Of a DNA stretch of 64,000 bases, positions 1 to 45,225 are shown in pieces. The DNA lies in contig CAVTHK010000003.1 in assembly GCA_963734495.1 (NCBI GenBank), positions 192,001 to 256,000 of the forward strand, given 5' to 3'. Within the stretch, counting starts at the first letter, position 1; every line of letters begins with the position of its first letter. A program made the translations under genes and the position numbers. This DNA is from an uncultured Spirochaetota bacterium. Lineage in GTDB: Bacteria > Spirochaetota > Spirochaetia > SZUA-6 > CAVTHK01. Below the pieces are notes generated by a model. The model saw only the letters and a list, made by a program, of their open reading frames with translations, was not told the DNA's origin and did not search any database.

Positions 1-1927
1 CCCTCGCGCTCCAGAGGGAGTTCGAAGAGGAGTGCCGGGCGATCGGCCGGGCGGCGCTCGAGGAGCTCAAGCGCGACCCGCAGAAGACGGCGATCGTGCT
101 CTTCGGCCGGCCGTATAACGCCTACGCCCCGGAAGCCAACAAGGGCATCCCCAAGAAGATCACGAGCCGCGGCGAGCTCGTGCTCCCGTACGACATGCTC
201 CCGATCGAGGAGGAGCCGATCCCCGAGGAGTACGCGAGCTCGATGTACTGGGAGGCGGGGCAGCGGATCCTCAAAGGCGCCGCGATCGTCAAGCGCGAGA
301 GCCAGCTCTACGGCGTGTTCATCACGAACTTCCTCTGCGGCCCGGACTCCTTTATCGTGTCGTACTTCCGCAGGGTCATGGCGTCGAAGCCCTCGCTGAC
401 CCTCGAGCTCGACGCGCACACCGCGGACGCCGGGCTCGACACGAGGATCGACGCGTTCCAGAGCATCATCCAGAACCACCGGAAAATACAGGGCAAGGTG
501 AAGGACCCCGCGGCGGCGTTCCGCCCGGCGCGGGTGTCCATGGAGAACGCCGGCGCGTTCTTTATCGATTCGAGCGGCAGGAAGCTCAGCTTCACGGACC
601 CGCGGGTCAAGATCATCTTCCCGCCGTTAGGCGACCACGGCAGCTATCTCATGGCGGCCGGCTGGCGGCGCCTCGGCATGAACGTGATCGCGCTGCCGCC
701 GGCGGACGCCGAGACGCTGCAGCTCGGCCGCAGCGTGACGAGCGGAAAGGAGTGCATGCCGCTCATCGTCTGCATCGGCGGGCTCATCAAGTACCTGCGC
801 TCGCGGCCGAAAGAGTCCGAGGACGAGAAGCTCGTCTTCTTCATCCCGCACGCCCTCGGCTACTGCCGCCTCGGCCAGTACAACGTCGCCATCCGCGACT
901 TCGTTCGCGAGAACAAGGTCAGGGACCTCGCGACCCTCAACCTGAGCATGTCCGACCGGTTCGCGGGCATGGGGCCGAAGGTCCTGTTCAACGCGTGGAA
1001 GGCGATGGTGTGCATCGACCTGCTCGACGACATGTACTGCTCGATCCTCGCCCTCGCGAAGGACCCGGACGGCGGCGCCGCGATCTTCGAGGAGGAGTTC
1101 CGGAAGATCTGCGACTCCTTCGAGGGGATCTCGGGCGCGAAGTTCTACGATCAGCTGCGCGCTTCCTGGCGCGCTTCGCGCGATCCCGCTCAAGGCTTCG
1201 TTCGCGGAGACCGCGCGGATCGGGTTCAACGGCGAGTTCTTCGTGCGAAAGGACGCGTTCTCCAACCTGGGGCTGGCCTACCGGCTCGCGCGCAAGGGCT
1301 TTCTCGTGAGCACCGCGACGCTGACCGAGATCATGTACTACATGAGCTACCTGCAGAAGCACGGCATCAAGAAGGCCAACTACACCCTGGCGGGCTGGCT
1401 GGAGGCGGTCGCGTCCGCGGCGACGCAGCGCGCGGTGGAGAAGAAGATCAAGAGGATCTTCGCGGCCTCCGGCCTCGTCGACACCTCTCTCATCGACGTC
1501 GAGAGCACGACCCGCCATTCGAAGTTCATCGTGCCGAGGGATTTCGACGGCGAGCAGGTGCTCGTGCCCGGCATGACCTACCGGGACGCGTTCACCAAGT
1601 ACTGCGGGGTCGTCAACGTCGGTCCGTTCGGCTGCATCCAGACGCGCCTGGCGGACGCGGTCACGGTGCCGACGGCGAACATGAAGGGGAAGCGGGAGAG
1701 CTTCGCCTGCGCCGGCGTGCCCGTGCTCGCTTGCCGGCTTCTCCGACGACGAGCGCATCCCGTTCCTCACCGTCGAATCGGACGGCAATCCCTACCCGCA
1801 GCTGCTGGAGGCGAGGTTCGAGAGCTTCTGCCTGCAGGCGACCCGCGTCGCGAAGAAGATGGGCAAGAGCGTGGCCGGAGAGCGGAACGGATCGCCGCTG
1901 CCCGCGGCGGGCTCGAACGACCGCTGA
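1..1927 (+). CDS. C-terminal part of an acyl-CoA dehydratase activase-related (DUF2229-type) protein; 5' end outside window; indels near 1170 and 1735
   Basis: Motifs LFGRPYN, ITNFLCGPDSF, LELDAHTADAGLDTRIDAF, SGKECMP, GYCRLGQY, GPFGC and ESDGNP across ORFs 96..2027 and 1243..1977; TGA at 1925-1927 in the final frame. Confidence 0.8.
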
Positions 1928-40222: not shown

Positions 40223-40402
40223 GGTCGTATCATAACCTTTCCCGTCGCCCCATGTCCCGGCGCAGGGCGCGGCTCGAATGCGGGCCCGCCCGGAGGCGCA
40301 CGGGGGCTCCCCCGGAGGCGGCGGCGTCAGGACCGACAACCTTACGGCGTTCGCCGGCGACGCTGATTCTCTGTAACGGAAGGACCCTTCTGGTTGTTTT
40401 AT

Positions 40403-40924
40403 ATGGCACGGGACAACGGACTCGAAGAACGATTCCGCGCCTCCTACCAGCAGCTTTTTCCCCTGGTCTACAGGCTTGCGGTCCGGATCACGGGGGATAG
40501 CGACCGCGCGGAGGATCTCGCGCACGACGCGTTTCTCCGCCTGTACCAGCGGGGCGGAGCGCTGCCGGATGCGGACCAGACCAAGTACTGGCTGATCCGG
40601 GTGGTAAAAAACCTCTCGTACAACCACGAGAAGCGCAAGACGCGGGAGAGGCGGGCGCTCGAGCGGCTGGGGCGCGCGGAGCCGCAGCTCGAGCCTTCGA
40701 ACGAGGATCTTTTTCTCCGCGAGGAGGACCAGAGGCTCGTGCGCGAGCTGCTTGCGGCGCTGCCCCTGAACCTGAGGATGCCCCTGGTGCTCAAGGAGTA
40801 CGAAGGATTGACCTACCGGGAGATCGGGAAGATACTGAACATAAGCGAAGGAAACGTCAAAGTGCGGGTCTTTCGCGGGAGAGAGAAGCTTGCCCAACTA
40901 CTCGAGAAGCGGTCAGCGAATTGA
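40403..40924 (+). CDS. ECF sigma factor
   Basis: AEDLAHDAFLR, WLIRVVKN, EGLTYREIG, GNVKVRVFRGR. Confidence 0.92.
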   Translation: MARDNGLEERFRASYQQLFPLVYRLAVRITGDSDRAEDLAHDAFLRLYQRGGALPDADQTKYWLIRVVKNLSYNHEKRKTRERRALERLGRAEPQLEPSNEDLFLREEDQRLVRELLAALPLNLRMPLVLKEYEGLTYREIGKILNISEGNVKVRVFRGREKLAQLLEKRSAN

Positions 40925-41470
40925 CCGGAGGCTGATGGCAGCCTATCTCGACGGGCTCCTCGACGCGGCGGCCGCGGCGAGGGTGACATCGCTCGTGGAG
41001 AGCGATCCCGCCTGGGCCGCGGAGTACCAGCGCCAGAAGAGGGTCGGGGAGATGCTCGCGGCGACCGCACCGGTCGCGGTCCAGGGCGCAAGTCGAGCGC
41101 GTCGTGGAGCCGGCTGAGCGCGTCGCTCGCCTCCGCTGCCCCCGAGCCGCTGTGGCGCCGCAAGGTGGCGGTTCCGTTCCCCGCGGCCGTGGGGGCCGCG
41201 GCCCTCGTCCTGCTGCTGGCCTTCGGGCTCGTCTACACGACGGCCCGCGGCTCCGTCGGCATGATGCGCATCACGACCGTGCCGAGCGGCATCAAGCAGG
41301 TGCAGATCCAGGCCCCCCTCGCGGACCTCCAGCAGCTCCTCAAGAGCCTCGAAACAGGCGCGCCGAGCCGCGACGTCATCATCAGCCTGCCGGACGACTC
41401 GGAGAAGTTCTTCGTCGGAGAGCCGCTGCTTCTGCGGGCCACCGACGTCGATCGGAGCCGCTTCCGATGA
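40921..41470 (+). CDS. Anti-sigma factor (frameshifted, start uncertain)
   Basis: LMAAYLDG N-terminus and single TM, directly downstream of the ECF sigma. Confidence 0.7.
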
Positions 41471-42024
41471 ACGCGTTCGCCGGCGCCGCCTTCGCGCTGC
41501 TGGTGGCCTCGTCCGCGGCGGCCCAGCAGGGGACGGGCGCAAAGCCGCCCGCCGCCCCGCCCCCGGCCGGCCCGCCCGCTGCCACCACGCTCGAGGAGGC
41601 GCTCAAGGAGCTCTTCGACCAGGCCCTGCGCATCAACATCGTGGCGCGGGTGATGCCGGCCGGCGAGCAGCCCGTCGTCAACGTGGAGCGCTCGCAGCTC
41701 ACGCTGCCCGGCCACTCGGTGGCCGTCCGTTTCGAGGGCAGCAACATCCGCGTGACCGCCAACCTCACGCCCTACCTGCAGAACGACGGGAAGCTCATGC
41801 TGGTGGCCCAGGGCGAAGTCTGGGTGGCTGAGCCGACCTCGACCGCCGGGGCGGTCCGCTACCTCAGCTCCATCAAGAGCCTGCCGGTGTCGCTCGGGGA
41901 AAAGGTGTTCTTCTACCCCCTCGGAATCCCGGACGCCATCCAGGGCACCAACAAGTTCAACATCGCTCTCGAGATCCAGGTCGTGCCCGTGGACCAGCCG
42001 CCTCCCCAGCCGCCCCCGCGCTGA
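41467..42024 (+). CDS. Hypothetical exported protein
   Basis: ATG overlapping the previous stop, signal peptide, beta-rich domain. Confidence 0.75.
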   Translation: MNAFAGAAFALLVASSAAAQQGTGAKPPAAPPPAGPPAATTLEEALKELFDQALRINIVARVMPAGEQPVVNVERSQLTLPGHSVAVRFEGSNIRVTANLTPYLQNDGKLMLVAQGEVWVAEPTSTAGAVRYLSSIKSLPVSLGEKVFFYPLGIPDAIQGTNKFNIALEIQVVPVDQPPPQPPPR

Positions 42025-42027
42025 TCC

Positions 42028-43698
42028 ATGGACGAGACAGTCCCTTCGAAGCCGCCGTTCGACTTCCGGCGCAGCCTTCCGTACCTGATCCTGTTCACGC
42101 TCCTGCTCGCGCTCTTCCTGAGCTCGGCGCTCTCCCAGAGGCCGCCCGAAGTCCGTTCGATCGCGCCCGACGACGCCCGGCCCGGCGAGGAGCTGGTCAT
42201 CAAGGGGCGTTTTTTCGGCCGCGAGCGCGACGGCGCCCGCGTGAGCGTCAACGGGTATTCGCCGCCCTCGTCGGCCTACCTCTCGTGGACGGACCGCCGG
42301 ATCAGCGTGCTCGTCCCGGAGGAGATGCCCGCGGGCCTGCTCGCGGTCGTCACGAAGAACGGCGAGAGCCGCGAGGTGGTCCCGTTTACGAACGAGGCCT
42401 ACGTGCCGCAGCTCGCCTCGGGGCCGCTGGTCCCCGGCCAGCCGTACATCAGCGGCTTCGAGCCCAAGAGCGGCCCTCCCGGCACTCCCGTCACGATCAC
42501 GGGCATCAACTTCGGGCTCGACCGCGGCTCCGCGCGGGTGGAGTTCGCCTGGATCCCCGGCGACCGGACGCGGAACCTGCCCGACGTGGCGGGCTCCGAC
42601 ATGCTGCCGGCCCTCGAGTACAACCAGGACTACATCTCGTGGGAGGACCGCGAGATCCAGGTCCGCGTGCCGGACGGCGCCTCCTCCGGCAGCCTGCGGG
42701 TGGTCACCGACAAGGGCGAGAGCAACTCGGTCTACTTCGAGGTGCAGGACATCGTCGGCACCAAGCTCTTTACCAACAAGCGCATCTACCACGTGCAGTA
42801 CGGGGTGGAGGTCGCCGATGTGGCCACCTCGGGCACGCCGGGGCGGCTGCGGGTGTGGGTGCCGCGGCTCGTGCAGGGGCCGTCCCAGCGCGAGGTGCGC
42901 ATGATCGCCCGGGAGCCCGAGCCTCTCTTTGACAACTACGAAGGCTTTACGCTCTTCGCGTTCGACGACATCGGCAGGGGCGACCGCAGGCAGATCAGCC
43001 AGAGCTTCATGCTGTCCGCCTACGAAGTGGAGACGAGGGTCAACGCCGCGCGCGTCCCGACGGCCTACGACGCCTCCAGCCGCCTCTACCAGCGGTTCAC
43101 GGCCTCGGACCCGATCACGCCCTCCGAGGACGCGGGCCTCGTCAAGACCGCGCGCTCGATCGTCGGCCAGGAGACCAACCCGTACCTCAAGGCGCTCGCC
43201 GTCTACAACGCCGTGGTGGGCTTTCTCGGCTACGACCCGAAGGCGACGGACGTCCTGGAGTCCCTCAAGACGCGCAAGGGCGACGCCTCGGTCTACTCCC
43301 TGCTGTTCACCGCGCTGCTGCGGGCCGCCGGAGTGCCGGCGAGGCCGGTGGCCGGTTACGTCGTGGGGTCCGACGGCAAGGCCGTCAGGCACATGTGGGC
43401 CGAGTTCTACCTGGAGCAGCTCGGCTGGGTGCCCGTAGACCCGGCGCTCGCCGACGGGCTCAAGTTCGGCGACTTCCCGCGGGTGCTCAACCCCGCGTCC
43501 TACTATTTCGGAAACATGGACAATCAGCACATCATCTTTTCGCGCGGTCTCGCCGTGCTCAAGCCCATGGATCCGAGGGCCTCGGTCGTGACGCGCCGCG
43601 ACGCGCCGGGGCTCCAGACGATCCACGAGGAGTACTCGGGCGGGATCACGGGGTACACGGCGCGGTGGACGGAGCTCGAGGTGCTCGGGATCTACTGA
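42028..43698 (+). CDS. Membrane-anchored IPT/TIG + transglutaminase-like protein
   Basis: Two IPT-like units (IKGRFFG, ITGINFG); LLRAAGVPARPVAG, HMWAEFY, GWVPVDP. Confidence 0.88.
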   Translation: MDETVPSKPPFDFRRSLPYLILFTLLLALFLSSALSQRPPEVRSIAPDDARPGEELVIKGRFFGRERDGARVSVNGYSPPSSAYLSWTDRRISVLVPEEMPAGLLAVVTKNGESREVVPFTNEAYVPQLASGPLVPGQPYISGFEPKSGPPGTPVTITGINFGLDRGSARVEFAWIPGDRTRNLPDVAGSDMLPALEYNQDYISWEDREIQVRVPDGASSGSLRVVTDKGESNSVYFEVQDIVGTKLFTNKRIYHVQYGVEVADVATSGTPGRLRVWVPRLVQGPSQREVRMIAREPEPLFDNYEGFTLFAFDDIGRGDRRQISQSFMLSAYEVETRVNAARVPTAYDASSRLYQRFTASDPITPSEDAGLVKTARSIVGQETNPYLKALAVYNAVVGFLGYDPKATDVLESLKTRKGDASVYSLLFTALLRAAGVPARPVAGYVVGSDGKAVRHMWAEFYLEQLGWVPVDPALADGLKFGDFPRVLNPASYYFGNMDNQHIIFSRGLAVLKPMDPRASVVTRRDAPGLQTIHEEYSGGITGYTARWTELEVLGIY

Positions 43699-43842
43699 GC
43701 ACAAGGATGTGCTCGCCCGGCGCGTACACGGATGTACAGGCGCCGGGCTGAGCGCCGGGCTGAGTCCATGGATGGACTCGCCCAGGCGCGTACATGCGCC
43801 TTGGCCCGCGTATTCGCCGGGGATGTACAAGCGCCGGGCTGA
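43697..43842 (+). repeat. Cluster of hairpins with CA-NGGA-TG apical loops (duplicated module)
   Basis: GAGCACA-AGGA-TGTGCTC, GTACA-CGGA-TGTAC, GAGTCCA-TGGA-TGGACTC, and a fourth GGGATGTAC. Confidence 0.85.
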
Positions 43843-43942
43843 CCCGCGGCCCCGGCGGGCGCCTGCGCCGCCCGAGGCGGCGCTCTCCGGGCGCTCGCGG
43901 GCTGCCGGCGAGCCACGAAAACCTCCGCGAACGCCTTCAAAG

Positions 43943-43971
43943 TTGACACCATCTGAGCCGATTCCTATACT
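43943..43971 (+). promoter_or_regulatory. sigma70-type promoter of the cNMP-binding gene
   Basis: TTGACA-17 bp-TATACT. Confidence 0.8.
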
Positions 43972-43992
43972 GTAGCTGCCGCAGTGGGGAAT

Positions 43993-45225
43993 ATGTCTGG
44001 TCCGCAATTAACGTTAGTCAACTTCCGCAAGGGCGCGTATGTCACCGTCGAGGGCAAACAGCGCGCCGATCAGTTCTACATCATCCGCAGCGGCAAGGTG
44101 CAGGTCCGCAAAGAGGTCGAGATCGCCGAGGAGCAGGAGGAGAAGGTCCTCGTCCCCGGCGACTTCTTCGGCGTCGTGTCGACGATGTCCGCCCACAGCC
44201 ACATCGAGACGGCGATCGCGATCACCGACGTTTCCCTGATCGCCGTCGGCCGCGACCAGTTCGGGCTGCTCATCCAGCGCAACGCGCCGGTCGCCATGAA
44301 GATCATCTTCCAGTTCTCCAAGCGCATGCGCGCGCTCGACGGGGCGCTCACGCGGGTGAACTTCAAGAACACCGCGGGGGAGAACCCGTCGCACCTGTTC
44401 AAGGTGGCCGAGTACTACCTCAAGCAGAGCCAGTACAACCAGGCCTACTACTCCTACTTCCGGTTCCTGCAGCACTGCCCGGACGACCCGAACGCCAAGG
44501 TGGCGCGCGAGCGGATGGCGAAGATCATGCCGTACGCCAAGGCGGTGTATCTCGACGGGGGAGGCAGCGACTTTACGCGCGTCTACCCGAAGAACACGAT
44601 GATCTTCTCCGAGAACGAGCCCGGCAAGGAGCTGTACATCATCCAGAAGGGCGTGGTGAAGATCAGCAAGATCGTCGACGACAAGGAAGTGCTGATCGCC
44701 CTCCTGCCGCAAGGCGACATCTTCGGCGAGATGGCGCTGCTCGACAACCGGCCGCGCTCCGCGTCGGCCGTCGCCCACGAGGACGTGACCCTGCTCGCGG
44801 TCAACCAGTCCAACTTCGCCCGGATGGTGCAGACGCAGCCCCAGATCGTCACGCGCCTCACGACCCTGCTCGCCGAGCGCATCTGGTTCGTCTACAAGCA
44901 GCTCGCCAACGCCATGATCAAGAACCCCCTGGGCCGCCTGTACGACTCGCTGATGCTGCAGCTCGAGAAGAGCAAGGTCAACATCGCCCACGGCGAGCCC
45001 TACACCTTCGAGTTCGGGCCCAAGGAGCTCACCGGCATGGTGGGGCTGTCGGCCAACGAGGGCGGCGACCTGCTGCGGCGGCTCTTCGAGAACAGGCGCC
45101 TCAAGGTCGTGGACAACAGGATCCAGACGTCCGACGTCGAAGAGATCAAGAAGCAGGCGGAGTACTTCAAGAAGATGGAGTCGATCGACAAGGCCCGCCG
45201 CGAAGCCCGCGCCGGCACCCAGTAG
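43993..45225 (+). CDS. Crp/Fnr-like protein with two cNMP-binding domains and a central TPR-like segment
   Basis: GDFFGVVS...HIETA (degenerate) and GDIFGEMALLDNRPRSASA (canonical). Confidence 0.88.
   Translation: MSGPQLTLVNFRKGAYVTVEGKQRADQFYIIRSGKVQVRKEVEIAEEQEEKVLVPGDFFGVVSTMSAHSHIETAIAITDVSLIAVGRDQFGLLIQRNAPVAMKIIFQFSKRMRALDGALTRVNFKNTAGENPSHLFKVAEYYLKQSQYNQAYYSYFRFLQHCPDDPNAKVARERMAKIMPYAKAVYLDGGGSDFTRVYPKNTMIFSENEPGKELYIIQKGVVKISKIVDDKEVLIALLPQGDIFGEMALLDNRPRSASAVAHEDVTLLAVNQSNFARMVQTQPQIVTRLTTLLAERIWFVYKQLANAMIKNPLGRLYDSLMLQLEKSKVNIAHGEPYTFEFGPKELTGMVGLSANEGGDLLRRLFENRRLKVVDNRIQTSDVEEIKKQAEYFKKMESIDKARREARAGTQ

Follow-up and report, generated by a model that had tools for sequence, protein, structure and literature searches.

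The 64,000-nt window analyzed here (contig CAVTHK010000003.1 of assembly GCA_963734495.1, from an uncultured Spirochaetota bacterium; coordinates without a prefix are window positions, and + denotes its forward strand) carries at 43696-43842 (+), directly behind the stop codon of a transglutaminase-like gene, an array of hairpins with GGA loops of the type bound by the RNA-binding protein CsrA. The array groups two units and a fragment of a repeat with a modular double-hairpin build, and we have little doubt that it is a copy of a dispersed and fast-changing family. Our best explanation, to which we give a probability of roughly 58%, is that this dispersed repeat forms a passive block of hairpins at the 3' end of an mRNA and that its sense copies are probably bound by CsrA.

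Architecture of the array

The array consists of three perfect hairpins with the apex CA-NGGA-TG (that is, CA-AGGA-TG, CA-CGGA-TG and CA-TGGA-TG) and a fourth hairpin that is interrupted by a 25-nt insert. The elements follow one another in the order TGA stop, small hairpin, two-tier hairpin, TGA, solo arm, TGA, small hairpin, broken two-tier hairpin and TGA (Table 1), with GGA-to-GGA spacings of 25, 40 and 51 nt. These are the four elements on which the initial annotation, made from the sequence alone, had based its proposal of a CsrA sponge RNA derived from a 3' untranslated region (UTR); all four are present on the + strand where it had placed them, and the cluster does start at the transglutaminase-gene stop (array from 43696) and end before the next promoter (43943-43971). 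RNA folding bears out the predicted structures as well, returning exactly the described hairpins for the + strand (-99.9 kcal/mol; z = -5.1, 200 shuffles); the reverse strand folds nearly as strongly (z = -4.3).

The stem of small hairpin 1 is extended by a U.G pair that takes in the entire TGA stop (43696-43698); because this hairpin contains the stop codon, it must be within the mRNA. Its sequence, TGAGCACANGGATGTGCTCG, is found in identical copy behind the stop codon of five other genes (six genes in total). The two small hairpins of the window differ by compensated changes in their stems (GAGCACA/TGTGCTC vs GAGTCCA/TGGACTC). In two-tier hairpin 1, the outer stem is topped by GTACA-CGGA-TGTAC (43724-43737, loop CGGA at 43729-43732), and the hairpin scores 34.6 bits (E = 0.017) against the family model R1 described below. 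The fourth hairpin is GTACA...GGGA-TGTAC, with its 5' GTACA at 43790-43794 and its 3' half, GGGATGTAC, at 43820. The word CANGGATG is not enriched over the whole window (6 found vs 7.2 expected); three copies on one strand inside 73 nt are far beyond chance (~1e-5 expected per window). An Rfam scan of 43000-44500 at E <= 10 gave noise only and no family match.

A dispersed family of modular hairpins

The host assembly (G000; 5.38 Mb, 68% G+C, 18 contigs, 83% complete) contains 69 perfect CANGGATG hairpins with a stem of at least 5 bp, that is, 69 of its 507 CANGGATG words (13.6%) sit on such a stem, compared with 2.95% for all comparable words genome-wide; CAGGGATG is among the top stem-associated words in the genome. 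The hairpins form head-to-tail arrays at many places, and the family comprises ~33 loci. The repeat unit is a linker of 3-5 nt (TGA, TAG, AAG or TGG) followed by a small hairpin and a two-tier hairpin, both capped by CA-NGGA-TG; the two-tier hairpin has its NGGA loop on an inner stem of 5 bp, which in turn stands on an outer stem of 9 bp, with a bulge of 2-4 nt on the 3' side. We listed 31 two-tier copies with a CA...TG apex, ~29 of which are members of the family. When all NGGA-loop hairpins of two-tier build with 9/9 outer pairs are considered, the CA...TG apex occurs 26 times and the next commonest apex 5 times.

The pattern that defines the family is a fixed loop on stems that vary freely with compensation. 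Alignment A3 contains 16 equal-length copies of the two-tier hairpin, in which 96.9% of the cells are paired, 10 of the 14 pairs change on both sides and none of 500 shuffles reaches this level; the copies were picked for pairing and some are tandem neighbors, so these figures overstate independence. Compensated stem changes are seen among copies in one genome, and compensated stem differences also separate the arrays of two relatives, in which the initial annotation had recommended looking for covariation (at C13:136k, below; locations outside the window are given as contig and position). Model R1, built from A3, has 41 matches in G000 at E <= 1, including copies outside the model and the window hairpin; at three other loci the matches are 61 nt long and contain a loop insert. 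TGA...TGA flanks occur at four TGA-type arrays (three single-unit arrays and the window array) and at none of five TAG-type copies. We recognized no terminal inverted repeats in the family copies, and a target-site duplication is consistent only for the TGA-type copies.

The insert in the fourth hairpin belongs to a second family, with the loop CG-TACT-CG, that likewise combines a fixed loop with variable stems; G000 contains 70 perfect copies, 64 of them intergenic by codon-usage gene calls. This second family enters the GGA loops at a single point, CA-N-G^GATG, the inserted segment being CGCCCTGG plus a hairpin. CG-TACT-CG hairpins also form tandem arrays of their own (e.g., C16:80417-80484, C13:332558-332601 and C7:144033-144130), and one such array runs right up to a TTGACA word.

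Placement at stop codons and -35 boxes

Loci were classified with a home-made codon-usage gene caller, Pfam-corrected at the window locus, and several of the flanking calls are uncertain. Of 55 clusters, 10 single hairpins inside coding regions were left out as chance occurrences, as were intergenic singletons with neither an R1 match nor an adjoining stop codon or -35-type word. Read on the GGA strand, the 5' end of an array is nearly always anchored at a stop codon, where the anchoring word is CTGAG or CTAGG, or at a -35 box, where it is GTCAAG. At ~13 loci including the window (type A loci), a gene on the same strand has its TGA or TAG stop inside the small hairpin, and the distance from the gene end, where called, is -6 to +17 nt. 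At ~20 loci (type B loci), the array directly adjoins a -35 box, in reverse complement, that belongs to an oppositely oriented gene; TTGnnn-16..18-TAnnnT starts at the array edge in 13 of these 20 loci, compared with 28 of 5000 random windows (0.56%). At type B loci such as C7:247227, C16:86398, C13:226308 and C7:103787, the promoter fires away from the array and the CAAG linker of the repeat provides the TTG of the -35 hexamer. At two loci for which the congener G001 was compared, it has the GTCAA word but no array.

The orientation of the arrays relative to transcription is not uniform: between co-oriented genes the array is sense at 11 loci and antisense at 9 (binomial p = 0.82). Twelve loci lie between divergent genes and four between convergent genes, where the array is sense to the upstream gene. 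When the antisense-placed arrays were inspected by eye for a divergent promoter no general pattern was apparent, and no count was made.

Turnover among relatives

We searched 100 relatives with R1 at E <= 0.01. The only congener (G001) has 12 matches, and six genomes from two other families have 1-4 apiece; the remaining 93 relatives gave none in this search, in which some assemblies are incomplete and the filters were stricter. The foreign copies share both the repeat unit and its placement, that is, some are located at a TAG stop and others against a GTCAAG word, and the G+C content of their loci is 57-73%. The number of units at one locus is one in G056 and two in G071. In two genomes of another family (loci L082, G038:C282, and L083, G058:C4), the repeat unit fills the spacers between apparent tRNA genes, and T-arm-like GGTTCGAATCC words adjoin the arrays.

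At the locus orthologous to the window array in the congener (L003), the stop, the promoter and the downstream gene are all kept, and the spacer is ~60 nt long without hairpins; relative to it, the array is an indel of ~175 nt directly behind the TGA. A 292-nt metagenome contig (run X1) joins 43698 to 43935 through 46 other letters, also without the array; it may derive from the same congener and is not counted as independent. The four DNA runs used for comparison, which covered only small shares of the stretch, also contained fragments of other copies of the repeat. The arrays at C7:144k and C7:103k are absent from G001 as well, which retains its native TACTGA stop and GTCAA word at these places. 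At C13:136k, both genomes have an array in the same place and register, with identical loops and stems that differ in a fully compensated manner; this fits replacement by another family member better than descent. Copies of the family are thus gained, lost, tandem-duplicated and replaced between close relatives. The proposed tie between the array and an operon for an extracytoplasmic function (ECF) sigma factor is not supported by this comparison, since the congener has the same operon and downstream promoter without the array and the X1 contig likewise lacks it.

CsrA and the loop motif

The host encodes the protein that the loops would require. The csrA and fliW genes, which the initial annotation had asked to confirm, are present and adjacent in G000; the csrA product (gene at C7:328738-328896) matches PF02599 at 87.3 bits and aligns over the RNA-binding core with solved CsrA structures, the best being the FliW-type 5DMB, and the aligned RNA-binding region is kept. 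Our background on CsrA is drawn from PMC7652899, PMC6849547 and PMC4066749. A review gives the repeat of CsrB as CAGGA(U/A/C)G in hairpin loops and the consensus from SELEX (repeated selection and exponential enrichment of ligands) as RUACARGGAUGU with invariant ACA and GGA, and an RsmE-based consensus is (A/U)CANGGANG(U/A) (PMC6849547). The family apex CA-N-GGA-U-G equals the CsrA/RsmE consensus CANGGANG and also fits the SELEX consensus and the CsrB repeat, so the match to CsrA sites reported in the initial annotation is supported, with a look-elsewhere discount because annotation of this kind tends to single out GGA loops. Among apexes with one mismatch in a hairpin context, 10 of 11 alter only the U after GGA and none alters GGA; the chance of this pattern under uniform change is very small, several of the copies being in tandem so that the true number of events is lower.

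The leaders of flaB genes contain a GGA-loop hairpin ~25 nt upstream of an AAGGAGG Shine-Dalgarno sequence, and the hairpin and the ribosome-binding site together have the form expected of a CsrA operator. The G000 leader is at C7:320830-320945 (L057), with orthologs in G001, G056 and G055. In G001, the leader stem has a compensated G-C to A-U change, and in G055 the apex is CA-CGGA-UG. Other flaB genes of the host (C4:6518, C15:6045 and C7:319853) have GGA hairpins plus a AGGGAGGA-type site. Two flaB loci on different contigs (C4:6300-6930 and C15:5635-6260) share nearly the same upstream sequence and score equally in Pfam, which may reflect either a recent duplication or assembly redundancy (contamination of the assembly is rated at 4.7%).

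At the window locus, the array is most likely a passive block of stable RNA hairpins at the 3' end of the mRNA. Because the loops equal the CsrA consensus and resemble the flagellin-leader hairpin, transcribed sense copies (the window array and ~12 others at stop codons) would probably bind CsrA, and copies so bound would add a distributed, low-level binding load. If the binding were assayed in vitro, we would expect, with somewhat better than even confidence, that CsrA binds transcribed sense copies. Our picture of the family is accordingly graded: it is a REP/BOX-like repeat (see below) that would probably bind CsrA when transcribed, and it would work as a set of CsrA sites only if expressed. 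The family itself, its presence or absence in relatives, the census of orientations, the motif match and the csrA-fliW pair are observed directly; CsrA binding, any regulatory effect and the mechanism by which the repeat spreads are matters that we infer. The loops either match CsrA sites by chance or were recruited as CsrA sites.

Comparison with known systems

As in CsrB/CsrC and RsmX/Y/Z, several GGA-loop hairpins with a consensus apex lie on one strand of the window array and the host encodes CsrA. Unlike those RNAs, the array is not a stand-alone gene, has no Rfam homology, occupies a locus that is not conserved among relatives and belongs to a multi-copy repeat present in both orientations; in addition, the host has the protein antagonist FliW. 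In a 2020 review, the presence of FliW is described as anti-correlated with that of the BarA-UvrY genes needed to transcribe small RNAs of the Csr family, and the joint action of FliW and RNA antagonists on CsrA is treated as an open question there. The resemblance to the single CsrA sites in flagellin leaders (Bacillus subtilis hag and Campylobacter jejuni flaA) concerns the flaB leaders with their GGA-loop hairpin before AAGGAGG; each such leader site is a single-copy element that is conserved in place and overlaps the ribosome-binding region, whereas the repeat copies lie in 3' UTRs or upstream of promoters.

In lifestyle, the family resembles repetitive extragenic palindromes (REPs), the bacterial interspersed mosaic elements (BIMEs) that contain them, and BOX elements. 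It shares with REP/BIME its short, G+C-rich palindromes in dozens of intergenic copies, which cluster, intermingle with other motifs, often follow a stop codon immediately and differ between close relatives. It fails the definition of a REP. In REPs the conserved parts are the stem and a 5' GTAG, and neighboring copies alternate in orientation; the units of this family are instead arranged head-to-tail, with a conserved loop and variable stems, and GTAG occurs in only two copies, where it overlaps the TAG stop. The REP-like repeat that the initial annotation had offered as its alternative is closer to the truth insofar as the array is a dispersed repeat, and it falls short at the REP definition and at the link to a REP-associated tyrosine transposase (RAYT). 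PF01797 (Y1/RAYT) has no match in G000 (83% complete) or G001 (99% complete), and we rejected a RAYT association: around the Y1 gene of G055 there is no CANGGATG, just a single inverted repeat that is unrelated.

BOX elements of Streptococcus pneumoniae, Correia elements, enterobacterial repetitive intergenic consensus (ERIC) sequences and mycobacterial interspersed repetitive units (MIRUs) are similarly modular: the number of modules varies, RNA structure is strong, the elements sit beside promoters or where genes end, and copy numbers differ between relatives. As in BOX elements and miniature inverted-repeat transposable elements, presence, absence and copy number differ at orthologous sites. 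The family differs from these elements in having no recognized terminal inverted repeats, inconsistent flanking duplications and a loop motif of the CsrA type.

Our literature search found no description of CsrA-motif repeats or of this spirochete repeat, nor any RNA antagonist of CsrA for spirochetes; to our knowledge, none is known there. If transcribed copies do bind CsrA, CsrA sites could be spread by a repeat family, allowing fast rewiring of 3' UTRs. Even without a role for CsrA, the rules of the family are unusual: a fixed loop on covarying stems, a 5' end flush with a stop or a -35 box, and a second family that inserts into the loop. For annotation, it would be prudent to check whether arrays of GGA hairpins in such genomes are multi-copy before calling them sponge RNAs.

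Alternative explanations

Several observations weigh against our best explanation, among them the selection of the copies in A3 noted above. Nine loci that are antisense to both neighbors keep intact loops, a result that would not be anticipated for a motif maintained by CsrA binding. The ratio of intact to decayed loops is 22/9 at type A loci, 19/7 at divergent type B loci and 12/11 at antisense type B loci, so the intact share is slightly lower in antisense (12/23 vs 41/57 for the others; Fisher p = 0.12). On the GGA strand, G.U and A.C mismatches number 9 and 12 in 36 hairpins, that is, there is no RNA-strand signal. The triloop CA-GGA-TG, which is the exact CsrB repeat, is on stems in 40 of 1422 occurrences, equal to the baseline and not enriched. 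Family stems of at least 7 bp are more stable than most SELEX ligands, and long stems may disfavor CsrA binding, as suggested in the review. Sixteen loops in the arrays, by regular-expression count, carry the second-family insert. At the window locus, transcription past the first hairpin is what we infer.

Some of these observations suit a selfish or structural repeat that acts as DNA, in which the hairpins would form in single-stranded or cruciform DNA, the apex would be where a mobilizing enzyme recognizes or cuts the DNA and CsrA would have no role; we consider this possible and, on balance, doubtful. Sense and antisense copies keep the motif equally well, a G.U strand bias is absent, and the entry of the second element at CA-N-G^GATG in at least 16 copies is a DNA event aimed at the loop. 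Moreover, the fixed loop and variable stems of the CG-TACT-CG family indicate that the pattern is not specific to GGA, the array 5' ends are anchored at fixed short words (CTGAG/CTAGG and GTCAAG), and one orthologous site is occupied by different subfamily members. What a DNA-level repeat leaves unexplained is the constraint on C, A, G, G, A and G with a free N and a free base after GGA, as in CsrA/RsmE sites, together with the occurrence of the same apex in a flagellin leader; it also has no candidate enzyme, since Y1/RAYT was found in neither G000 nor G001 at their respective completeness and the motif does not flank the Y1 gene of G055. We continue to prefer a dispersed repeat with sense copies that are probably CsrA-bound. 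A more ambitious version, in which a mobile module with perfect CsrA loops homes to stop codons and -35 boxes in FliW-using spirochetes and at least 13 sense mRNA 3' ends jointly form a distributed CsrA sink beside FliW, gained and lost locus by locus from one species to another, appears unlikely.

The dedicated sponge of the initial annotation, processed from the transglutaminase mRNA, titrating CsrA and linking the ECF-sigma operon to it, is in our judgment improbable. It is right that the first hairpin is in the mRNA (it holds the stop), that the sense strand of the array, in a csrA-containing host, presents three consensus loops intact and a fourth split, and that the array begins at the stop of the last gene in the ECF-sigma cluster; the 2020 review also treats the coexistence of FliW and an RNA antagonist in any species as open. 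However, this is one of ~33 dispersed loci, and the same module occurs in both orientations, at promoters as well as after genes unrelated to each other, the metagenome relative and the congener's orthologous operon have no array, an insert has destroyed one loop of the four, and no promoter of the array's own, processing signal, terminator or Rfam match was found. The initial annotation had itself set many copies in random orientation, linked to a RAYT, against a sponge; the copies are many and their orientation is random (11 sense vs 9 antisense), without the RAYT link. Finally, the arrays might serve only as transcription insulators or 3'-end stabilizers that stop read-through or 3' exonucleases in either orientation, with an irrelevant loop sequence, an explanation to which we attach very little weight. 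Both strands fold strongly (z = -5.1 and -4.3), arrays either adjoin a stop codon without a gap or immediately precede a -35 box (13/20 vs 28/5000), REP elements of Escherichia coli stabilize upstream mRNA, and translation of the upstream gene is lowered when a REP lies within ~15 nt of its stop codon; but a U tract and a terminator-like site are absent, the 12 loci between divergent genes have no read-through to stop, and it would go unexplained why the loop is conserved from family to family within the order and at loci that range from 57 to 73% G+C.

Genes and promoter around the array

By its position directly behind the native TGA, the array lies in the 3' UTR of the transglutaminase-like gene (Table 1). 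The encoded protein has an ortholog at 83% identity at L003 in the congener, and its relatives are all uncultured Spirochaetales, Spirochaetaceae or Treponema records. The array ends ~100 nt before the downstream promoter, which is the sole promoter-like site found; no promoter of the array's own was found. The region 43500-44100 contains no terminator-like site and no U tract, that is, nothing that qualifies as an intrinsic terminator.

Table 1. Features of the window at and around the hairpin array
Feature	Position	Strand	Description
ECF sigma factor gene, first of the upstream cluster	40394..40924	+	Pfam Sigma70_r2, Sigma70_r4_2, Sigma70_ECF
TIG and transglutaminase-core protein gene	42028..43698	+	Pfam Transglut_core 1.5e-23, TIG 1.2e-13; TGA stop 43696-43698
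Small hairpin 1 (type A hairpin), GAGCACA-AGGA-TGTGCTC	43697-43714; with extension 43696..43715	+	loop AGGA 43704-43707
Two-tier hairpin 1 (type B hairpin)	43715..43748	+	outer stem GCCCGGCGC/GCGCCGGGC, inner stem GTACA/TGTAC, 2-nt 3' bulge
Linker TGA, solo outer 3' arm (GCGCCGGGC), linker TGA	43749..43763	+	three exact GCGCCGGGCTGA copies
Small hairpin 2 (type A hairpin), GAGTCCA-TGGA-TGGACTC	43762..43779	+	loop TGGA 43769-43772
Two-tier hairpin 2, in two parts	43780..43839	+	5' part GCCCAGGCGC-GTACA; 3' part GGGA-TGTAC-AA-GCGCCGGGC
Insert in the GGA loop of two-tier hairpin 2	43795..43819	+	degenerate second-family copy GCGTATTCGC; family loop CG-TACT-CG
Closing TGA linker of the array	43840..43842	+	sequence
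GC-rich spacer	43843..43935	+	3' part homologous to the short spacer of the congener (alignment A1)
Sigma-70-like promoter of the next gene, TTGACA-17-TATACT	43943..43971	+	conserved in the congener
Gene with two cyclic-nucleotide-binding domains	43984..45225	+	Pfam cNMP_binding 2.1e-43

Between the genes for the ECF sigma factor and the transglutaminase-like protein is an open reading frame (41104-42024) without a Pfam match that, judged by its position, could encode an anti-sigma factor. Downstream, the reading frame for the cyclic-nucleotide-binding protein (+, end 45225) and one for a nucleotidyl transferase (-, stop at 45000) overlap by 226 nt as listed, and one end of the pair is probably shorter in reality.

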